Shown here one piece after another: positions 10,944 to 17,276 of a stretch of 19,582 nucleotides of DNA. Position numbers and translations under genes: made by a program. Within the stretch, counting starts at the first letter, position 1, and each line of letters begins with the position of its first letter. Under the pieces are notes generated by a model. That model saw nothing but the letters and a program-made list of their open reading frames with translations, was not told the DNA's origin and did no database searches. The DNA comes from Kofleriaceae bacterium (GTDB taxonomy: Bacteria > Myxococcota_A > Polyangia > Haliangiales > Haliangiaceae). The stretch covers positions 1 to 19,582 of the forward strand of contig JBKJLC010000135.1 in the NCBI GenBank assembly GCA_046597055.1. Direction: 5' to 3'.

Positions 10944-11570
10944 TCAGGGGTTCCGACCATCCTCGACCACACGCCACATGTACCACGCGGCCAGCGAGCG
11001 CCAGGGCCGCCAGGGCGCGGCCGACTTCACCAACCGCGCCGGGTCCGGCAGGCTGCGCAGGCGCAAGAACTGCTGGGTCCCCAGGCGAACGCCGAGGTCA
11101 CCGACCGGCCACACGTCGGGGCGCCCCAGTCCGAACATCAGGAACATGTCGACCGACCACGGGCCGATGCCGCGCACCGGCAGCAGCATCGCCGCGACCT
11201 CGTCGTCGCCGCCGCGCATGAGCGCGCTCGCGCGCACGCGGCGGTCGGCGAAGTGCGCCGCCAGATCGAGCAGCGCCAGCGCCTTGGGGCGCGACACGCC
11301 GGCCTGCCGCAGATGAGAGGCGGAGCTGGCGGCCAGCACCGCCGGCCGCGGGAACCGGCCGAACAGGGCCACGAAGCGGCGCAGGATCGCCGCGGCCGCG
11401 GCGCCGGCGAGCTGCTGGTAGATGATCGATCGGGCCAGGCTCGCGAACGGATCGCGGGTCGGCGTGAGGTCGGGCAGCCCGTGGCGGTCGACCAGCGGGC
11501 CGAAGCGAGGCTCGACCGCGCGCAGGTGCGCGGCGGCGACGACGAGGTCGGGGCCGGGGCCGGGCGTCAT
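10944..11570 (-). CDS. alkA: DNA-3-methyladenine glycosylase II family (HhH-GPD), short form, 208 aa
   Basis: DPFASLARSIIYQQL, HhH LLPVRGIGPWSVDMFL, catalytic Asp in DVWPVGDLGV, WRPWRSLAAWYMWR. ATG overlaps the upstream TGA (ATGA). Confidence 0.92.
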   Translation of the reverse strand: MTPGPGPDLVVAAAHLRAVEPRFGPLVDRHGLPDLTPTRDPFASLARSIIYQQLAGAAAAAILRRFVALFGRFPRPAVLAASSASHLRQAGVSRPKALALLDLAAHFADRRVRASALMRGGDDEVAAMLLPVRGIGPWSVDMFLMFGLGRPDVWPVGDLGVRLGTQQFLRLRSLPDPARLVKSAAPWRPWRSLAAWYMWRVVEDGRNP

Positions 11571-12586
11571 CCGTCGGGAGGAGCTACCACGCCGCGCGCG
11601 GTCCGGATCGCGTGATCGTGGGGCGCGAACGCGTCGAGCGACTGGGCCTGCATCGGCCGCCAGAACGCACCCCACGCGGCGCGGGCCCGGGTCCGCAGCG
11701 GCGCCGGCGCCGGCGGGAACCACAGCTCGATCGACGCGTTGATGCTCATCGCCGCGACGCTGCGATCGCGCCCGAGCTGGATGCCGAGCGCCTGGTAGGC
11801 GGCGTTCAGCGCGGCCAGCTGCTTCTTGCGCACGACCTCGATGATCGCCCGCGGCTCGATGCCGAGCGTCCGGAAGTCGTCCTGCATCAGCCGCAGCTCG
11901 GCCAGCCCCCAGTACAGGATGCGGGCCTGGAACAGGACCAGCTTCGCGACCTGCCGGCGCGACATGGTCGCCATCAGGCTCGGCAAGTACTGCATGCCGA
12001 GCCCGACGTGGCGCGCCTCGTCGCGCTCGTAGTAGCGCAAGAGCTCGGTCAACACGGGCTCGACCGCCTGCTCGCGGACCGCCTGGAACAGCGCCAGCGC
12101 GATCGTCTCGATCATGAGCTGCATGCCCATGAGCTTGCAGGCGAGGTCATCGGTCTCGAGCACCAGGTCGAGCAGCGCCTGCGGTGCGCGGGCCAGCTTG
12201 CCGGGGCTGAAGCCGAGCGCGGCCAGGTAGTCGTGCATGACGTAGAAGTGGCGGGCCTCGTCGAAGGCCTGGCTGGTCGCGGCCAGCTTGGCCTCGAGCG
12301 GCACCAGCTGGTCGGCGAGCTGCGCCGAGATCTTCCACGCCGCCAGCTCGCCCCACAGGATGATCGTGAACACCCGCTCGAGCGCGCCGCGCTTGTCGTC
12401 CGGCACCCGGACACCCTGGTGGCGGGCGAGCAGCTCGCCGAGGATGTCCTTGCCGTCCCACGCCAGCACCTGGCTGCGGTGGTAGATGTTCTCGCACTTC
12501 ACCAGTCGACGCGCCTCGTCGGCCGAGCGCGTCAGGTCGAACATGTCGTAGCGGAGCTGGGTGTGACCGAATCCGGCGATCGTCAT
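11567..12586 (-). CDS. Ferritin-like superfamily diiron-carboxylate protein (339 aa), function unknown
   Basis: Two E...ExxH sets: WGELAA...FDEARH and MIETIA...RDEARH. Shine-Dalgarno CAGGAGGG just before ATG 12586. Confidence 0.88.
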   Translation of the reverse strand: MTIAGFGHTQLRYDMFDLTRSADEARRLVKCENIYHRSQVLAWDGKDILGELLARHQGVRVPDDKRGALERVFTIILWGELAAWKISAQLADQLVPLEAKLAATSQAFDEARHFYVMHDYLAALGFSPGKLARAPQALLDLVLETDDLACKLMGMQLMIETIALALFQAVREQAVEPVLTELLRYYERDEARHVGLGMQYLPSLMATMSRRQVAKLVLFQARILYWGLAELRLMQDDFRTLGIEPRAIIEVVRKKQLAALNAAYQALGIQLGRDRSVAAMSINASIELWFPPAPAPLRTRARAAWGAFWRPMQAQSLDAFAPHDHAIRTARGVVAPPDG

Positions 12587-12659: not shown

Positions 12660-12748
12660 GTCACCGTCACAACCTCAGGCTGCCCAGCGCCTCCCGCACG
12701 CGCTCACGCACCACCAGGAACTCCTCCACCCCCGGATGCGCCGCGGTC
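12660..12748. repeat. Left copy of 89-bp direct repeat (displaced copy of the AbiEii-like gene 3' end)
   Basis: gtcaccgtcacaacctcaggctg...ggatgcgccgcggtc matches 14213-14301 except at 12675 (t) versus 14228 (c). On the minus strand it encodes TAAHPGVEEFLVVRERVREALGSLRL-stop. Confidence 0.97.
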
Positions 12749-12780
12749 GAGCTCGCGCTCGTGGCCCCCTTCGCTGGGGT

Positions 12781-12802
12781 CCCCTGACGATGGCGTCAGG
12801 GG
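12781..12802 (-). terminator. Perfect 9-bp hairpin overlapping the PRTase-like stop codon
   Basis: cccctgacg-atgg-cgtcagggg; no U-tract. Confidence 0.4.
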
Positions 12803-13350
12803 GCGTCGATGTGACCGGCGAGCGTCGCGTCATCCGGGTCGTAGCTGATCTCGAACTTGCGCGGCGTGTAGGCGTCCTCGCGGGGTTGGCTGTCGGTGAT
12901 GGCCACCGCGAACGCTGCAACCCGTCCCGTAGCGCCAAGGAATCGATCCAGGGCGATGATGCTGCGACCTCGGTGGACGTTGTCGTCCACCATCACGATG
13001 ATCCCGGTAAGCGGGACCGCCGCGGACGTGCGTCGAAGGTTGGCAACGAGCGCCGCCGTCGAGTTGTCGTGCCCGTCATGCTTGGCTAAAAGCGGCGCAG
13101 CCTGCGCGGCGAGCACCCGCACCTCCCCGAGACCGGCGCCTGCTCGATGGCATTGGTCCGGTCGACGCGGACGGGCGCCGACGAGGGATGCCGGGGATGC
13201 GCGATCACCTGGGGTGGGTTCGGCCTCGCCCGGTTGTCCTTCACCGCGTAGAGCAAGCCCCGCATCGGCGACGAGTTCGGCGTCCACGCCGCGCGCGGTC
13301 GCACCCTTGGCGTAGTAAGTGCCGAGAGCAAGACCTTTGATGACACGCAT
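12796..13350 (-). pseudogene. Phosphoribosyltransferase-fold protein (DprA-associated, ShosT-like), apparently frameshifted and internally deleted
   Basis: PRPP-loop-like motif IIVMVDDNVHRGRSI; starts 4 nt after the dprA-like stop. Over 13260-13141 the annotated frame has 20/40 G/C-ending codons while the +1 frame (WTPNSSPMRGLLYAVKDNR...) has 36/40. Confidence 0.7.
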
Positions 13351-13354
13351 CGCG

Positions 13355-14050
13355 TCACGCGCCCAGGACGTAGCGGATCACGTCGTCGGAGGAGCGCAGC
13401 GGGCGGCCCAGCGGCTTGCCCTCGCCGACGAAGCGCCGCGGCCAGCTTACGTTCGGATTGTCGAGCACGGCGCCAGCGATGAACACTGGGTGCTGTGCCG
13501 TGACGCTCTCGGCAGCCTGATGCAACGAGCCGCTGGTGTCACTCGCCTCGATGATGACGGTGGCCTGGGCGAGGCGCGCCATGATGCGGTTCCGTTCGGG
13601 GAAGTTCGACGGCACGAACTTCTGGCCCCACTCGAACGGAGACACCAGCAGGTGGTCTCTGTAGATGAGCTGCTGGAGTGCAGCATGCTTGGACGGGTAC
13701 ACCTTATCGAGCGGCGTGCCTACCACTGCGATGGTGCGTCCGCCGTGGTCGATGCACGCCGTGTGCGCGGCGTAGTCGATGCCTTCAGCCAGTCCGGAGA
13801 CCACGACTACCCCGGCGCGCGCGCAGTCACGGGCGAGTTGTGACGCTCGTTTGCGTGCCTCGGGGGTCGCCTTCCGCGCGCCGACGATGGCGATACGAGG
13901 CTGGTCGAGTAACGAGAGATCACCGACGCAGTGAACCTGAGGAAACCGCAGCATCAGGCCGTTGGAGATCCCGAGGCGCTGCGCTGGTACCGTGGCCACG
14001 TCGCCCCGGTCGGGCGGCGCGTATTCGGCGGTGGGCGATGCGGCGGACAT
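13355..14050 (-). CDS. dprA: Short DprA/Smf-family protein, Rossmann domain only (231 aa)
   Basis: GDLSLLDQPRIAIVGARKAT, VVVSGLAEGIDYAAH, GGRTIAVVGTPLDKVYP, NFPERNRIMA, TVIIEASDTSGSLHQA. No N-terminal SAM or C-terminal winged-helix domain, so probably not the competence ortholog. Start uncertain (14050, 14104 or 14125). Confidence 0.93.
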   Translation of the reverse strand: MSAASPTAEYAPPDRGDVATVPAQRLGISNGLMLRFPQVHCVGDLSLLDQPRIAIVGARKATPEARKRASQLARDCARAGVVVVSGLAEGIDYAAHTACIDHGGRTIAVVGTPLDKVYPSKHAALQQLIYRDHLLVSPFEWGQKFVPSNFPERNRIMARLAQATVIIEASDTSGSLHQAAESVTAQHPVFIAGAVLDNPNVSWPRRFVGEGKPLGRPLRSSDDVIRYVLGA

Positions 14051-14165
14051 CAGCAACGGGTCGGGACCATAGCCGGCGGGGGTGACGGCGCACCGCGGCA
14101 CCATCCGAAGGTGCCGGGATTCCACGGAGGCGGCGGCACGTTACACCGGCGTGCAAGCCCAATAT

Positions 14166-14190
14166 CCGAAGCGCGCCGGGCACGCTTCGG
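14166..14190 (-). terminator. Hairpin about 30 nt after the AbiEii-like stop, inside the islet
   Basis: Minus-strand RNA ccgaagcgugc-ccg-gcgcgcuucgg (11 bp including one G-U pair) followed by auauu. Confidence 0.45.
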
Positions 14191-14212
14191 GTCCACGCAA
14201 GTTCGCCTCTCC

Positions 14213-14301
14213 GTCACCGTCACAACCCCAGGCTGCCCAGCGCCTCCCGCACGCGCTCACGCACCACCAGGAACTCCTCCACCCCCGGATGCGCCGCGGT
14301 C
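14213..14301. repeat. Right copy of 89-bp direct repeat (current 3' end of the AbiEii-like gene)
   Basis: 88/89 identical to 12660-12748; contains the stop codon at 14220-14222 plus 7 nt beyond it. Confidence 0.97.
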
Positions 14302-14828
14302 AGCGCCCGCCACTTCCGCACGCCACCCCGCGACGTCCCCCAGTCACCGCGGCTCCGGAAGTCATCGAGCGCCGCCAGCCCTAGCCCGCGCGAGCCAAAC
14401 GCGACCGCGACCCCGGCCCGGGTCGCCTCCCGATCGAGCCCCGCATGTCGCCACAGCAGATCGAGATCGAACAGGTCCTTGGCCCGCCAGCGGCCCCGCC
14501 CGTGCTCGCACAGGCCATGCAGCTTCCACCCGAACAGGGTCTCGGCCGCGCACGCGACCACCGCCCCGACCCCGGGGATCAGGACCGGCCGCGCCGGTAC
14601 CGCCATCGGGTCGCCGATCGCCAGGTCGATCTGGAACTGATGACCGCGCACGCCGCCGACGTCGCCGGCGACGATCGCGCGCAGGCCGGGTGACGCGGTC
14701 CCCGCGAAGTCGACGTCCACCGGCGCCCGCGCGCCCGGGCACAGCGCGGCGGTGACCAGGCTGCCGCGCAGCACCCACCCGTCGGCGGCTGGGGCGACCC
14801 GCGCCCGCCGCAACCACCCGGCGAGCAA
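14220..14828 (-). CDS. AbiEii/AbiGii-family nucleotidyltransferase (type IV toxin-like), orphan, possibly degenerate
   Basis: WVLRGSL (cf. LKGG), RAPVDVDF (DxD), QIDLAIGDP, ETLFGWKL, RWRAKDLFDL, VAFGSRG. Only a TTG start in frame, although the frame stays open upstream (…RRDGVNATDALIELLAGW). The segment after DxD is unusually short. Confidence 0.8.
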   Translation of the reverse strand: MLAGWLRRARVAPAADGWVLRGSLVTAALCPGARAPVDVDFAGTASPGLRAIVAGDVGGVRGHQFQIDLAIGDPMAVPARPVLIPGVGAVVACAAETLFGWKLHGLCEHGRGRWRAKDLFDLDLLWRHAGLDREATRAGVAVAFGSRGLGLAALDDFRSRGDWGTSRGGVRKWRALTAAHPGVEEFLVVRERVREALGSLGL

Positions 14829-14930
14829 CTCGATCAGCGCATCGGTCGCGTTGACGCCGTCGCGCCGGACCCGACCCCGTTGCTGATCGGCTTCATCGAG
14901 CGCCTGCCCGCAGCATCCCCGAAACGACGA

Positions 14931-14980: not shown

Positions 14981-17092
14981 CTACTTCTTGGCGTCAGCCT
15001 TGGCCTTGGCGGCCTTGGCCAGGAGCTCCTCGCCGATCACCGACGGCACGTCGGCGTAGCGCGAGAACTCCATCGTGAACTCGGCCTTGCCCTGGGTCGC
15101 CGACCGCAGCGGGGTCGAGTAGCCGAACATCTCGGCCAGCGGCACCTCGGAGTCGACGCGGACCGAGCCGTCCTCCTCGGAGGACTGGACGATCACGCCA
15201 CGGCGCTGCATCAGGGTCGACAGGATGTTGCCGGAGAACTCCGACGGACCCTCGACCGAGACCTTCATGATCGGCTCCAGGATGCGCGGCTTGGCCTTCG
15301 GCCAGAACTCGCGGAACGCGCCGCGGGCGGCTTCCTGGAAGGCGATGTCGCTCGAGTCGACCTGGTGCGACTGACCATCGTTGATGGTCACCCGGACGCC
15401 GGTGACCGGCACGCCCAGGCGGGGCGACTTGGCGATCATGGACTTGAAGCCCTTCTCGCAAGCCGGGATGAACTCGCGGGGAATCGAGCCGCCGCGGATC
15501 TCGTCGTTGAACTCGAACTCGCCGTCGAACGGCTCGGCGAAACCCGCGACGCGACCGTACTGGCCGGAGCCACCGGTCTGCTTCTTGTGGGTGTAGTTGA
15601 ACTCGATCCGCTGACCGATCGTCTCGCGGTACGCGACCTGGGGCGGGCTGGTCATGACCTCCGCCTTGTACTCGCGCTTCATGCGCTCGATGTAGACGTC
15701 GAGGTGGAGCTCACCCATGCCGGCGACGATCGTCTCGTTCGACTCGGGATCGACCCAGCACTTGAAGGTGGGGTCTTCCTTGGTGAAGCGGTTGAGCGCC
15801 TTCGACATGTTGATCTCGGCGCCGGAGTCCTTGGCCTTGATCGCGACCGAGATGACCGGCTGCGGCACGAACATCGAGGTCATCGCCAGGTTGACGGTGC
15901 CGTCGGTGAAGGTGTCGCCCGAGTTGCAGTCGACGCCGAACAGCGCGCAGATGTCGCCGGCGCTGGCGTCGGTGATGTCTTCCTTGTCGTCCGAGTGCAT
16001 GCGGACCAGGCGGCCGACCTTCACCTTCTTCCCGCTACGGGTGTTGGTGATGAAGTTGTCCTTCTCCAGGTGGCCCTGGTAGACGCGGACGTAGGTCAGC
16101 TGGCCGTAGCGACCGTCCTCGAGCTTGAACGCGAGCGCGACCAGCGGCTTCTTGGGATCCGAGTCGAGGACCTGCGCGGCCTCTTCCTTGTCGAGATCGA
16201 GGGCGATGTTCTCGACCTCGCGCGGCTCGGGGAGGAACTGGCAGACGCCGTCGAGGAGGATCTGGACGCCCTTGTTGCCGAGCGCCGAGCCCATCATGAC
16301 CGGCGTGCACTTGAGCGCGATCACGGCCGCGCGCAGCGAGGTGCGGATCAGCTCGGGGGTGACCTTGTCCTCGAGCATCGCCTCGGTGAGCTCGTCGGAG
16401 ACCATCGACAGCTGGTCGAGCATCTCCTCGCGGAGCTTGTCGGCCTCGGCCTTGAGCTCCTCGGGGATCGGGCCGAACTCGATCTGGTGGCCGTTGTCGC
16501 CGAAGAAGCGGATCGCGGTCATCTCGATGAGATCGACCACGCCCTCGAGCTTGTCCTCGAGGCCGATCGGCATCTGGATCATGACCGGGTGCAGCTTGAG
16601 CTTCTCGCGGAGCTGGTCGCGCACGCGGTACGGGTTGGCCCCCGAGCGGTCGAGCTTGTTGATGAAGGCGATGCGCGGCACCTTGTACCGGCGCATCTGG
16701 CGGTCGACCGTGTACGACTGGCTCTGCACGCCGGCGACGCCGCACAGCACCATGATGGCGCCGTCGAGCACGCGCAGCGACCGCTCGACCTCGATGGTGA
16801 AGTCGACGTGGCCGGGGGTGTCGATGATGTTGATGTGGTGCGACTTGAGGTTGACCTTGGCGGTCGACCCGCTCCACGTGCAGTACGTGGCGGCGCTCTG
16901 GATCGTGATGCCGCGCTCCCGCTCCAGCTCCATCGAGTCCATCTTGGCGCCGACGCCGTCCTTGCCCTTCACCTCGTGAATCGCGTGGATCCGCTTCGTG
17001 TAGAACAGGATGCGCTCGGTCAGCGTGGTCTTGCCGCTGTCGATGTGGGCCGAGATGCCGATGTTGCGAACTTTCGAGAGGTCGGTGATCAC
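14981..17092 (-). CDS. fusA: Elongation factor G (spdEFG1/mitochondrial EF-G1-like subtype), stand-alone, 703 aa
   Basis: [126 protein letters not shown] precedes GTG 17092. Confidence 0.98.
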
Positions 17093-17276
17093 GTCAGGTT
17101 CTCCTCTGGTCGCCACCGGATCGGCGGCAGCGGGCGTAGGGGCGCGCGATGACTACCCTTTAGTCGGCAGCCGGTCAAGGGATCAGTGGTGGCTGCCCTG
17201 GGCGCACCCTGGCCAGGTTCTGACAGGCCCTTGAATTCATTCGAGGTCGACCGGGTCGTCTGCTAGCTTCGACGAT

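Follow-up and report, generated by a model that had tools for sequence, protein, structure and literature searches.

A foreign dprA-PRTase cassette between long direct repeats of an abiEii-like gene end in a soil myxobacterium

The window analyzed in this work, a stretch of 19,582 nucleotides from a soil myxobacterium (contig C93; the metagenome assembly to which it belongs has 8.4 Mb, a completeness of 94% and a contamination of 7.55%), carries a small foreign insert lying between two long direct repeats of the 3′ end of an abiEii-like gene. This is likely a known kind of insertion scar with a new kind of cargo; the scar itself represents a known mode of integrase-free gene gain, and the cargo, a gene pair resembling ShosTA, is what this case adds. 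Long target duplications accompany this module at two unrelated genes clearly and at three probably, and a literature search covering titles and the openings of abstracts, with subscription papers mostly outside it, found no long target duplication around a DprA/ShosTA cassette. The identity of the cargo, on which an earlier, sequence-only reading of this DNA was silent, is the more interesting part of the case. The features referred to below are the following (coordinates of the window; G010 is a genome of the same genus):

11567..12586, minus strand: ferritin-like diiron gene, the conserved downstream flank of a variable interval
12660..12748, minus strand: repeat copy 1, the displaced abiEii 3′ end (79 coding nt, stop and 7 nt)
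12749..12795, minus strand: linker of 47 nt, from the PRTase stop to copy 1
12796..13350, minus strand: ShosT-like PRTase-only gene, broken (frameshift and deletion relative to G010)
13355..14125, minus strand: DprA/ShosA-like gene, an open frame starting at GTG 14125 or ATG 14050, without an N-terminal SAM domain
14126..14212, minus strand: region of 87 nt ahead of dprA, single copy, without similarity to its G010 counterpart
14213..14301, minus strand: repeat copy 2, the current 3′ end of abiEii
14220..14896, minus strand: orphan abiEii-like nucleotidyltransferase gene, probable pseudogene (Pfam AbiEii, PADLOC AbiEii)
14981..17116, minus strand: fusA (EF-G), the conserved upstream flank of the variable interval

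The repeats, the insert and the sequencing runs

The two direct repeats (12660-12748 and 14213-14301) are identical at 88 of 89 positions, are spaced by 1553 nt and align locally with a score of 174 (shuffled sequences: mean 23, maximum 37). Copy 2 comprises the final 79 coding nucleotides of abiEii, its TGA (14220-14222) and 7 nt past the TGA; copy 1 is followed by about 70 nt and then by the ferritin-like gene, and the stretch past copy 1 is similar to the region upstream of the ferritin-like gene in relatives. A BLASTN search of the 8.4-Mb assembly with the 89-mer retrieved the two copies only (next match: E 0.14), which rules out a dispersed multicopy repeat. The alignment and the BLASTN search are in agreement with the sequence-only reading, according to which the repeats correspond to the end of an AbiEii-like gene that was restored by the insertion, with the displaced 3′ end left downstream; copy 1 is indeed the abiEii tail.

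The insert (1464 bp) has a moderately lower GC content than the genome (68.1% vs. 72.3%) and a strongly foreign codon use, the GC3 of its two genes being 0.82 and 0.72 vs. 0.91-0.96 in seven neighbors, and their hexamer coding scores falling at the 0.6th and 0th percentile among the genes of the genome. No recombinase was found by Pfam in the three scanned ORFs of the insert, where only DprA-type families match. The earlier description of a foreign insert devoid of a recombinase is thus supported by GC, GC3, hexamer scores and Pfam alike. The non-homologous junction is located at 12748/12749, that is, at the end of the linker, and exhibits an imperfect 10-nt match to the bases preceding copy 2; the 51-nt linker of G010 is dissimilar to the 47-nt linker of the window. 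A REP-like nature of the linker was ruled out, its 16-mers being near-unique in the genome. A sigma-70 scan found no promoter, and terminator-like hits on the plus strand numbered two vs. 0.7 expected.

Eight of the ten sequencing runs listed were compared with the window, X6 and X10 being left out; X1-X3 belong to one study, possibly the source study, and X4 and X7 to a second one. The contigs of X1-X3 end exactly at the repeat, with flanks matching at 99% at least; a 460-nt contig of X4 links the insert to abiEii by way of copy 2, X8 yielded short unrelated pieces only, and no RNA run carrying the sequence was listed. Both junctions appear in X1-X3, and the insert-abiEii junction is also present in the second study, whose runs cover the insert, copy 2 and the abiEii side, not copy 1. 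This argues against an assembly artefact, which we regard as extremely improbable, and so do the seven differences between the repeat copies of G010 (see below). On the other side, the window comes from a metagenome assembly with 7.55% contamination, and the 31-mer contigs do not order the paths through the 89-bp repeat, none of them spanning the whole stretch. Nor do these contigs distinguish an insert in integrated form from a circle alongside an empty site, and among those listed none joins the two flanks without the insert; the evidence for the integrated form is the assembly of the window itself.

The depth of the insert is similar to that of the flanks (12 and 9.6 vs. 9.1 in X1; 17 and 15 vs. 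12 and 14 in X2; 20 vs. 25 and 15 in X3), so that strong amplification or loss is not apparent in these three runs. The mismatch between the copies, at 12675, looks polymorphic, since X1 contains one repeat contig of 89 nt and X2 one of 73 nt starting at 12676. In the strain of the second study, which is about 2% diverged, the cassette already adjoins abiEii; at a depth of about 3, this strain differs from copy 2 at 8 of the 89 sites listed, against 7 differences over 321 sites of the gene body next to it (Fisher p 0.006), and X7 confirms five of the eight differences in copy 2. X7 also holds bases absent from the PRTase gene of the window. The proposal of a recent event consequently holds only in part, given that a diverged strain has the same cassette and that the PRTase gene of the window has since lost 160 nt.

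The cargo and its target gene

The product of the open frame at 13355-14125 matches Pfam PF02481 (E 4e-49) and the PADLOC ShosA profile (E 5e-58). It aligns with residues 125-266 of ShosA only, and solved DprA and ShosA chains match it only from chain residue 26-126 onward. In an alignment via H. pylori DprA, two essential ssDNA-binding arginines are conserved, the equivalents of R52 and R143, not of R170, being kept.

The product of the second gene (12796-13350) gave no family match, and its identity comes from relatives. Compared with the intact 236-aa gene of G010, it has undergone a net +1 frameshift at about 13287-13295 and a 160-nt deletion at 13142/13143; a PRPP-loop-like motif, MVDDNVHRG, is retained. 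Two intact PRTase homologues match the 237-position PADLOC ShosT profile (E 5e-7 and 5e-8). The G010 PRTase gave no PADLOC or Pfam match; its structural model (pLDDT 90.7) retrieved APRT and ShosT (8zvc) by Foldseek (E 1e-4 to 1e-3, TM about 0.35), and solved structures searched by sequence, with the PRTase alignment as query, gave only E values of 0.27 or worse. Based on the matches to the PADLOC ShosA and ShosT profiles and to the APRT and ShosT folds, the cargo is a ShosTA-like dprA-PRTase pair, not ShosTA proper. By analogy, an intact cassette would function as an abortive-infection or addiction module. Since the PRTase of the window is broken, only the antitoxin is likely to be active here, and recombination of one repeat with the other could remove the insert; the possibility of such a loss, raised in the sequence-only reading, is supported.

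Two further observations concern the PRTase gene. At 13286-13294, X2 has three substitutions and one base fewer relative to X1, X3 and the window; the palindrome of 10 bp that the window allele forms there is a hint of a template-switch mutation. Moreover, the PRTase is split across frames also at L065, L067 and L069 (genomes G108, G128 and G139), suggesting that the toxin has been lost repeatedly and dprA retained.

AbiE is a type IV toxin-antitoxin system. In relatives, abiEii closes an operon consisting of an RNA ligase gene, a Ham1-AbiEi gene and abiEii itself, which in G007 and G012 lies behind fusA, as abiEii does in the window. The operon, whose middle gene fuses Ham1 (nucleotide pyrophosphatase-like) to AbiEi, can be seen at L038:2395-5130 and also at L043, L048 and L050-L053; the fusion is an unusual AbiE arrangement. 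A tblastn search found neither the Ham1-AbiEi partner (the AbiEi query being the G007 protein) nor the RNA ligase gene in the 94%-complete assembly. Furthermore, the ATG of the window gene (14896) is out of frame with the gene body, which near 14705 lacks 40 codons; the matching ATG is the start in all seven relatives examined, whose proteins are 256-279 aa long. The target is therefore an orphan and, judging from its sequence, probably a pseudogene, and what was read at the outset as an AbiEii-like toxin gene is not an intact one, given the frameshifted start and the loss of 40 codons. Both toxin genes, that of the target and that of the cargo, have thus decayed later on.

The fusA-ferritin interval differs in content among the relatives examined (L036-L043, L055), with no integrase in evidence; endonuclease dU, Phd-ParE, EamA, AbiE and repeat proteins are encoded there. 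The exact empty site, with abiEii located directly before the ferritin-like gene and one repeat copy, was not found in 61 genomes; the organization nearest to the empty site is that of G007, where the order is abiEii-eamA-ferritin.

Homologous cassettes and possible routes of arrival

A search for homologues of the cassette gave 13 positive genomes among the 147 of the order, 7 loci in a species collection and 24 in metagenomes; a wider search with an alignment gave 6 positives among 401 genomes in the class, and one, the window's own, among the 401 of a phylum sample. With this query, the PRTase-only ShosTA-like subfamily was found almost exclusively in one myxobacterial family and order. None of 69 pattern matches in viral contigs was confirmed as a phage-borne copy. 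Thirty-seven loci were examined for a repeat across the cassette; 14 of them have a flank shorter than 300 nt and 3 an incomplete cassette, and 19 evaluable loci result once the window and a duplicate are set aside and L133 is added.

A repeat across the cassette is present at two of the 19 (L045 and L087) and was not found at the remaining 17. At L045, in G010, a 136-nt repeat at 95% identity ends 2 nt past the stop of a conserved gene, whose 3′ end it duplicates and which has no relationship to abiEii. The two copies differ at seven sites (four synonymous, two Val/Ile and one Pro/His), and the repeat was not found at 16 homologous loci of the genus, all of which have a downstream sequence other than that of G010. 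At L087, a decayed 56-nt repeat at 75% identity involves the end of hsdM, with a score of 38 that none of 1000 shuffles reached. Each of the three repeats (window, L045, L087) ends at most about 10 nt from a stop codon. In a tree built from 29 DprA rows, G010 is the sister of the window (support 96/94), and L087 pairs with L099 (88/84); both these latter cassettes follow an hsdM-like end, and the repeat is found in L087 only. More generally, a gene on the same strand ends within 200 nt of dprA at 9 of the 20 loci with a called upstream gene. A flanking match at L080 was attributed to chance, its score (30) being lower than the shuffle maximum (31), and weak ones at L081, L092 and L110 were likewise taken as chance.

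We favor, at somewhat better than even probability, an integrase-free arrival of the cassette as a donor piece made up of a gene tail plus the cassette, through a RecA-type crossover. We infer a donor haplotype in which the gene was directly followed by the cassette. A piece of it would have been trimmed and then joined end to end into a closed form, and a single RecA-type crossover within the shared gene tail would have integrated this closed piece, with the resident gene restored and the displaced 3′ end left beyond the cassette. On this model, each repeat would end just past the stop because the likeness between donor and recipient ends there, and its start would be arbitrary (89, 136 and about 56 nt) because the donor piece was trimmed at that point. 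A homology-driven integration, one of the options named in the sequence-only reading, is favored by the three targets with three repeat lengths, all ending near a stop, and by the unshared ends of the sister cassettes. It is also favored by gene-plus-cassette haplotypes without a repeat being common (the 9 of 20 loci mentioned above, as well as L099) and by the differing content of the fusA-ferritin interval among relatives. The seven differences of G010 fit two working alleles rather than a decaying copy, which suggests that the incoming DNA brought its own gene tail; the ComEC and Ku homologues of the genome also count for this route. The second-study strain is excluded as the donor in a single crossover by its 8 of 89 differing copy-2 sites (vs. 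7 of 321 beside them). The window copies carry the same allele, so that the model requires a same-allele donor or a later conversion between the copies.

Against a homology-driven integration stand the empty site, not found in the 61 genomes, and the frequency of displaced 3′ ends in the window's own genome. Of 5987 gene 3′ ends scanned, 57 have a nearby copy, and in 6 cases this copy is downstream and intergenic; a control with 5′ ends gave 9, so displaced 3′ ends are not enriched. Two of the 6 copies are more than 300 bp away, namely the islet of the window and one on contig C288. A second scan retrieved 39 same-contig direct repeats, 12 of them two-copy, and none other with the layout of the window.

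The C288 locus (L106:1850-3890; G000:C288:31350-33390) harbors a codon-foreign gene between two convergent genes; its product is cysteine-rich, probably exported and without a Pfam match, and its flanks are a 31-bp copy of the 3′ end of a kinase gene and joined perfect copies, of 104 bp and 29 bp, of an ABC-ATPase gene. This is possibly a second, more complex target-duplication insertion, or an assembly patchwork. At L107:230-4300 (G000:C58), repeats of 101 bp at 96% surround a tyrosine-recombinase fragment and a macro-domain gene, and a nearby 281-bp repeat brackets a JmjC gene.

A patchwork insert such as that of C288, with pieces of both neighboring gene ends, would also suit a one-step duplication during replication or break repair, an explanation that we consider unlikely, although it deserves some weight. 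In one version, the nascent strand would copy the gene past its stop, jump to the donor at a few matching bases, copy the cassette and return 89 nt upstream; in the other, a staggered break would be filled in and end-joined around the cassette. Both are consistent with window copies that are identical or differ by one polymorphic base, with the tandem TGACGG at the copy-2 junction and the imperfect 10-nt match at the copy-1 junction, and with the Ku homologue. They are at odds with the G010 copies, which differ like two selected alleles, and a random switch would favor ends close to a stop, as observed in all three cases, only as far as the gene must stay whole.

An origin by site-specific integration, with the recombinase supplied in trans, or from a larger element that targeted abiEii and left this remnant, is improbable. 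The layout is of the Campbell type, and the genome has nine tyrosine-recombinase matches over the Pfam cut-off; the sister cassettes of the window and G010, however, lie at unrelated targets with unrelated junction sequences, no recombinase remnant was found in the insert, and a search of the assembly gave no match to large serine recombinases. Indeed, immediately inside the repeats the window and G010 have unrelated sequences, so that conserved element ends were not found, and the different targets of the window, L045 and L087 exclude a fixed attachment site. Sister cassettes thus lack the same target or conserved att core of an integrase-mobilized island or a cis-mobilizable element. The evidence does not support abiEii as a dedicated attachment site, since the sister cassette duplicates the end of an unrelated gene, and neither does it support a minimal element mobilized in trans.

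Some homologues probably do ride integrative elements, as the cassettes of L078, L081 and L096 lie near an apparent remnant of a tRNA 3′ end. They share, about 300 nt before dprA, a sequence that by eye is the reverse complement of such an end and in which ARAGORN called no tRNA; together with the L091 cassette they form one clade and may be island cargo. A tRNA-Sec called by ARAGORN (L046:900-997) lies about 2 kb from the cassette of G013. Just past the displaced copy in G010, a VapBC-type PIN/RHH pair is located (L045:210-850), and the G010 site thus also gathers toxin-antitoxin genes.

A further possibility, to which we assign a small probability, slightly below that of a one-step duplication, is that the cassette promotes its own mobility. 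It would then be a two-gene selfish cassette moving without integrase, transposase or nuclease, whose antitoxin, a DprA/ShosA-type RecA loader, would raise recombination between the repeats and drive integration, amplification and excision (as a 1553-bp circle) more frequently than with other cargo; by analogy with ShosT, the PRTase toxin would provoke duplications and kill the cells losing the cassette. In E. coli, ShosA is described as binding ssDNA and RecA (PMC12961424) and as promoting deletion of a gene between repeats, and ShosT expression as giving DNA duplications (PMC11961720). The two ssDNA-binding arginines aligned via H. pylori DprA and the long repeats of both sister cassettes (96/94) at different genes point in the same direction. 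Repeats occur at 2 of the 19 other cassette loci vs. 3 of 258 intergenic gaps of the window's genome (Fisher p 0.04), a comparison in which unequal windows favor the cassette set, the genomes differ and the loci are related. When only near-identical repeats are counted, the figures become 1 of 19 vs. 0 of 258 (p 0.07). On the opposite side are the 17 of 19 loci without a repeat, the lack of a SAM domain in the window DprA and the similar depth of insert and flanks in X1-X3, without strong amplification or loss. Self-promoted mobility of the cassette is thus weakly supported (p of about 0.04-0.07).

Relation to known systems and significance

The scar of the window resembles ILTD but is not the ILTD of restriction-modification (R-M) genes. 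The original ILTD paper is reportedly that of Nobusato et al. in 2000. In the account of Furuta, Abe and Kobayashi 2010 (PMC2853133), ILTD is an insertion with long target duplication of R-M genes, marked by a genome-unique repeat longer than 30 bp, an insert shorter than 20 kb without any other mobile element and an empty site with one repeat copy in a related genome, with repeats that often span a start or a stop codon; its authors suggest a feature shared by R-M systems, double-strand breakage for example, and there leave the mechanism open. The window shares the long target duplication, here of 89 bp and genome-unique in its two copies, the short insert (1464 bp) without another mobile element and the variable direct repeat that spans the stop codon, so that the gene stays whole. 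The difference lies in the cargo, which is DprA-PRTase rather than R-M genes and in which no nuclease family match was found; moreover, the 61 genomes examined yielded no exact empty site for the window.

The arrival that we favor has an experimental counterpart in E. coli, where 56 of 60 clones are reported to have given a PCR product diagnostic of a lacZ-end duplication, with duplications of 109-950 bp in 14 sequenced cases, and where trimming, recircularization and a single crossover were proposed (PMC3240628). As described there, that case has in common with the window an integrase-free, variable duplication of a gene end around foreign DNA and a displaced 3′ end downstream; it involved conjugation in E. 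coli and an engineered plasmid, at about 4e-9, whereas the route proposed for the window is deduced from genomes. Classical homology-facilitated illegitimate recombination, as presented in PMC5361080, gives instead an insertion with a deletion, not a duplication.

As for the cargo, a DprA plus PRTase pair is reported to protect E. coli against T7 and lambda (PMC9122126). The cassette has in common with ShosTA the adjacent DprA-like and PRTase-fold genes, the PADLOC ShosA and ShosT matches, the two key ssDNA-binding arginines, the modeled fold of the G010 PRTase, which matches APRT and ShosT (8zvc), and the acidic PRPP loop of intact homologues. It differs in that the PRTase has no N-terminal pyrophosphatase domain (236 aa vs. 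424), the DprA has no SAM domain, structural-alignment identity is 12-14% and the PRTase of the window is broken. Similarly, the target matches AbiEii profiles, and in relatives AbiEii is paired with the Ham1-AbiEi fusion and the RNA ligase; in the window assembly these partners were not found, and abiEii has a frameshifted start and a 40-codon deletion.

ILTD has been tied to DNA-cutting restriction enzymes, and the cargo of the window, without a nuclease match, encodes a homologue of a RecA loader. If the cassette were indeed selfish, it would be a mobile element driven by a recombination mediator, and ILTD would occur without DNA cutting encoded by the cargo. A small construct of the two genes allows a direct test of whether the cargo promotes its own repeat-mediated mobility. 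If it does not, the islet would be an ordinary recombination scar, which still documents a PRTase-only ShosTA-like family present at many sites in one myxobacterial family.
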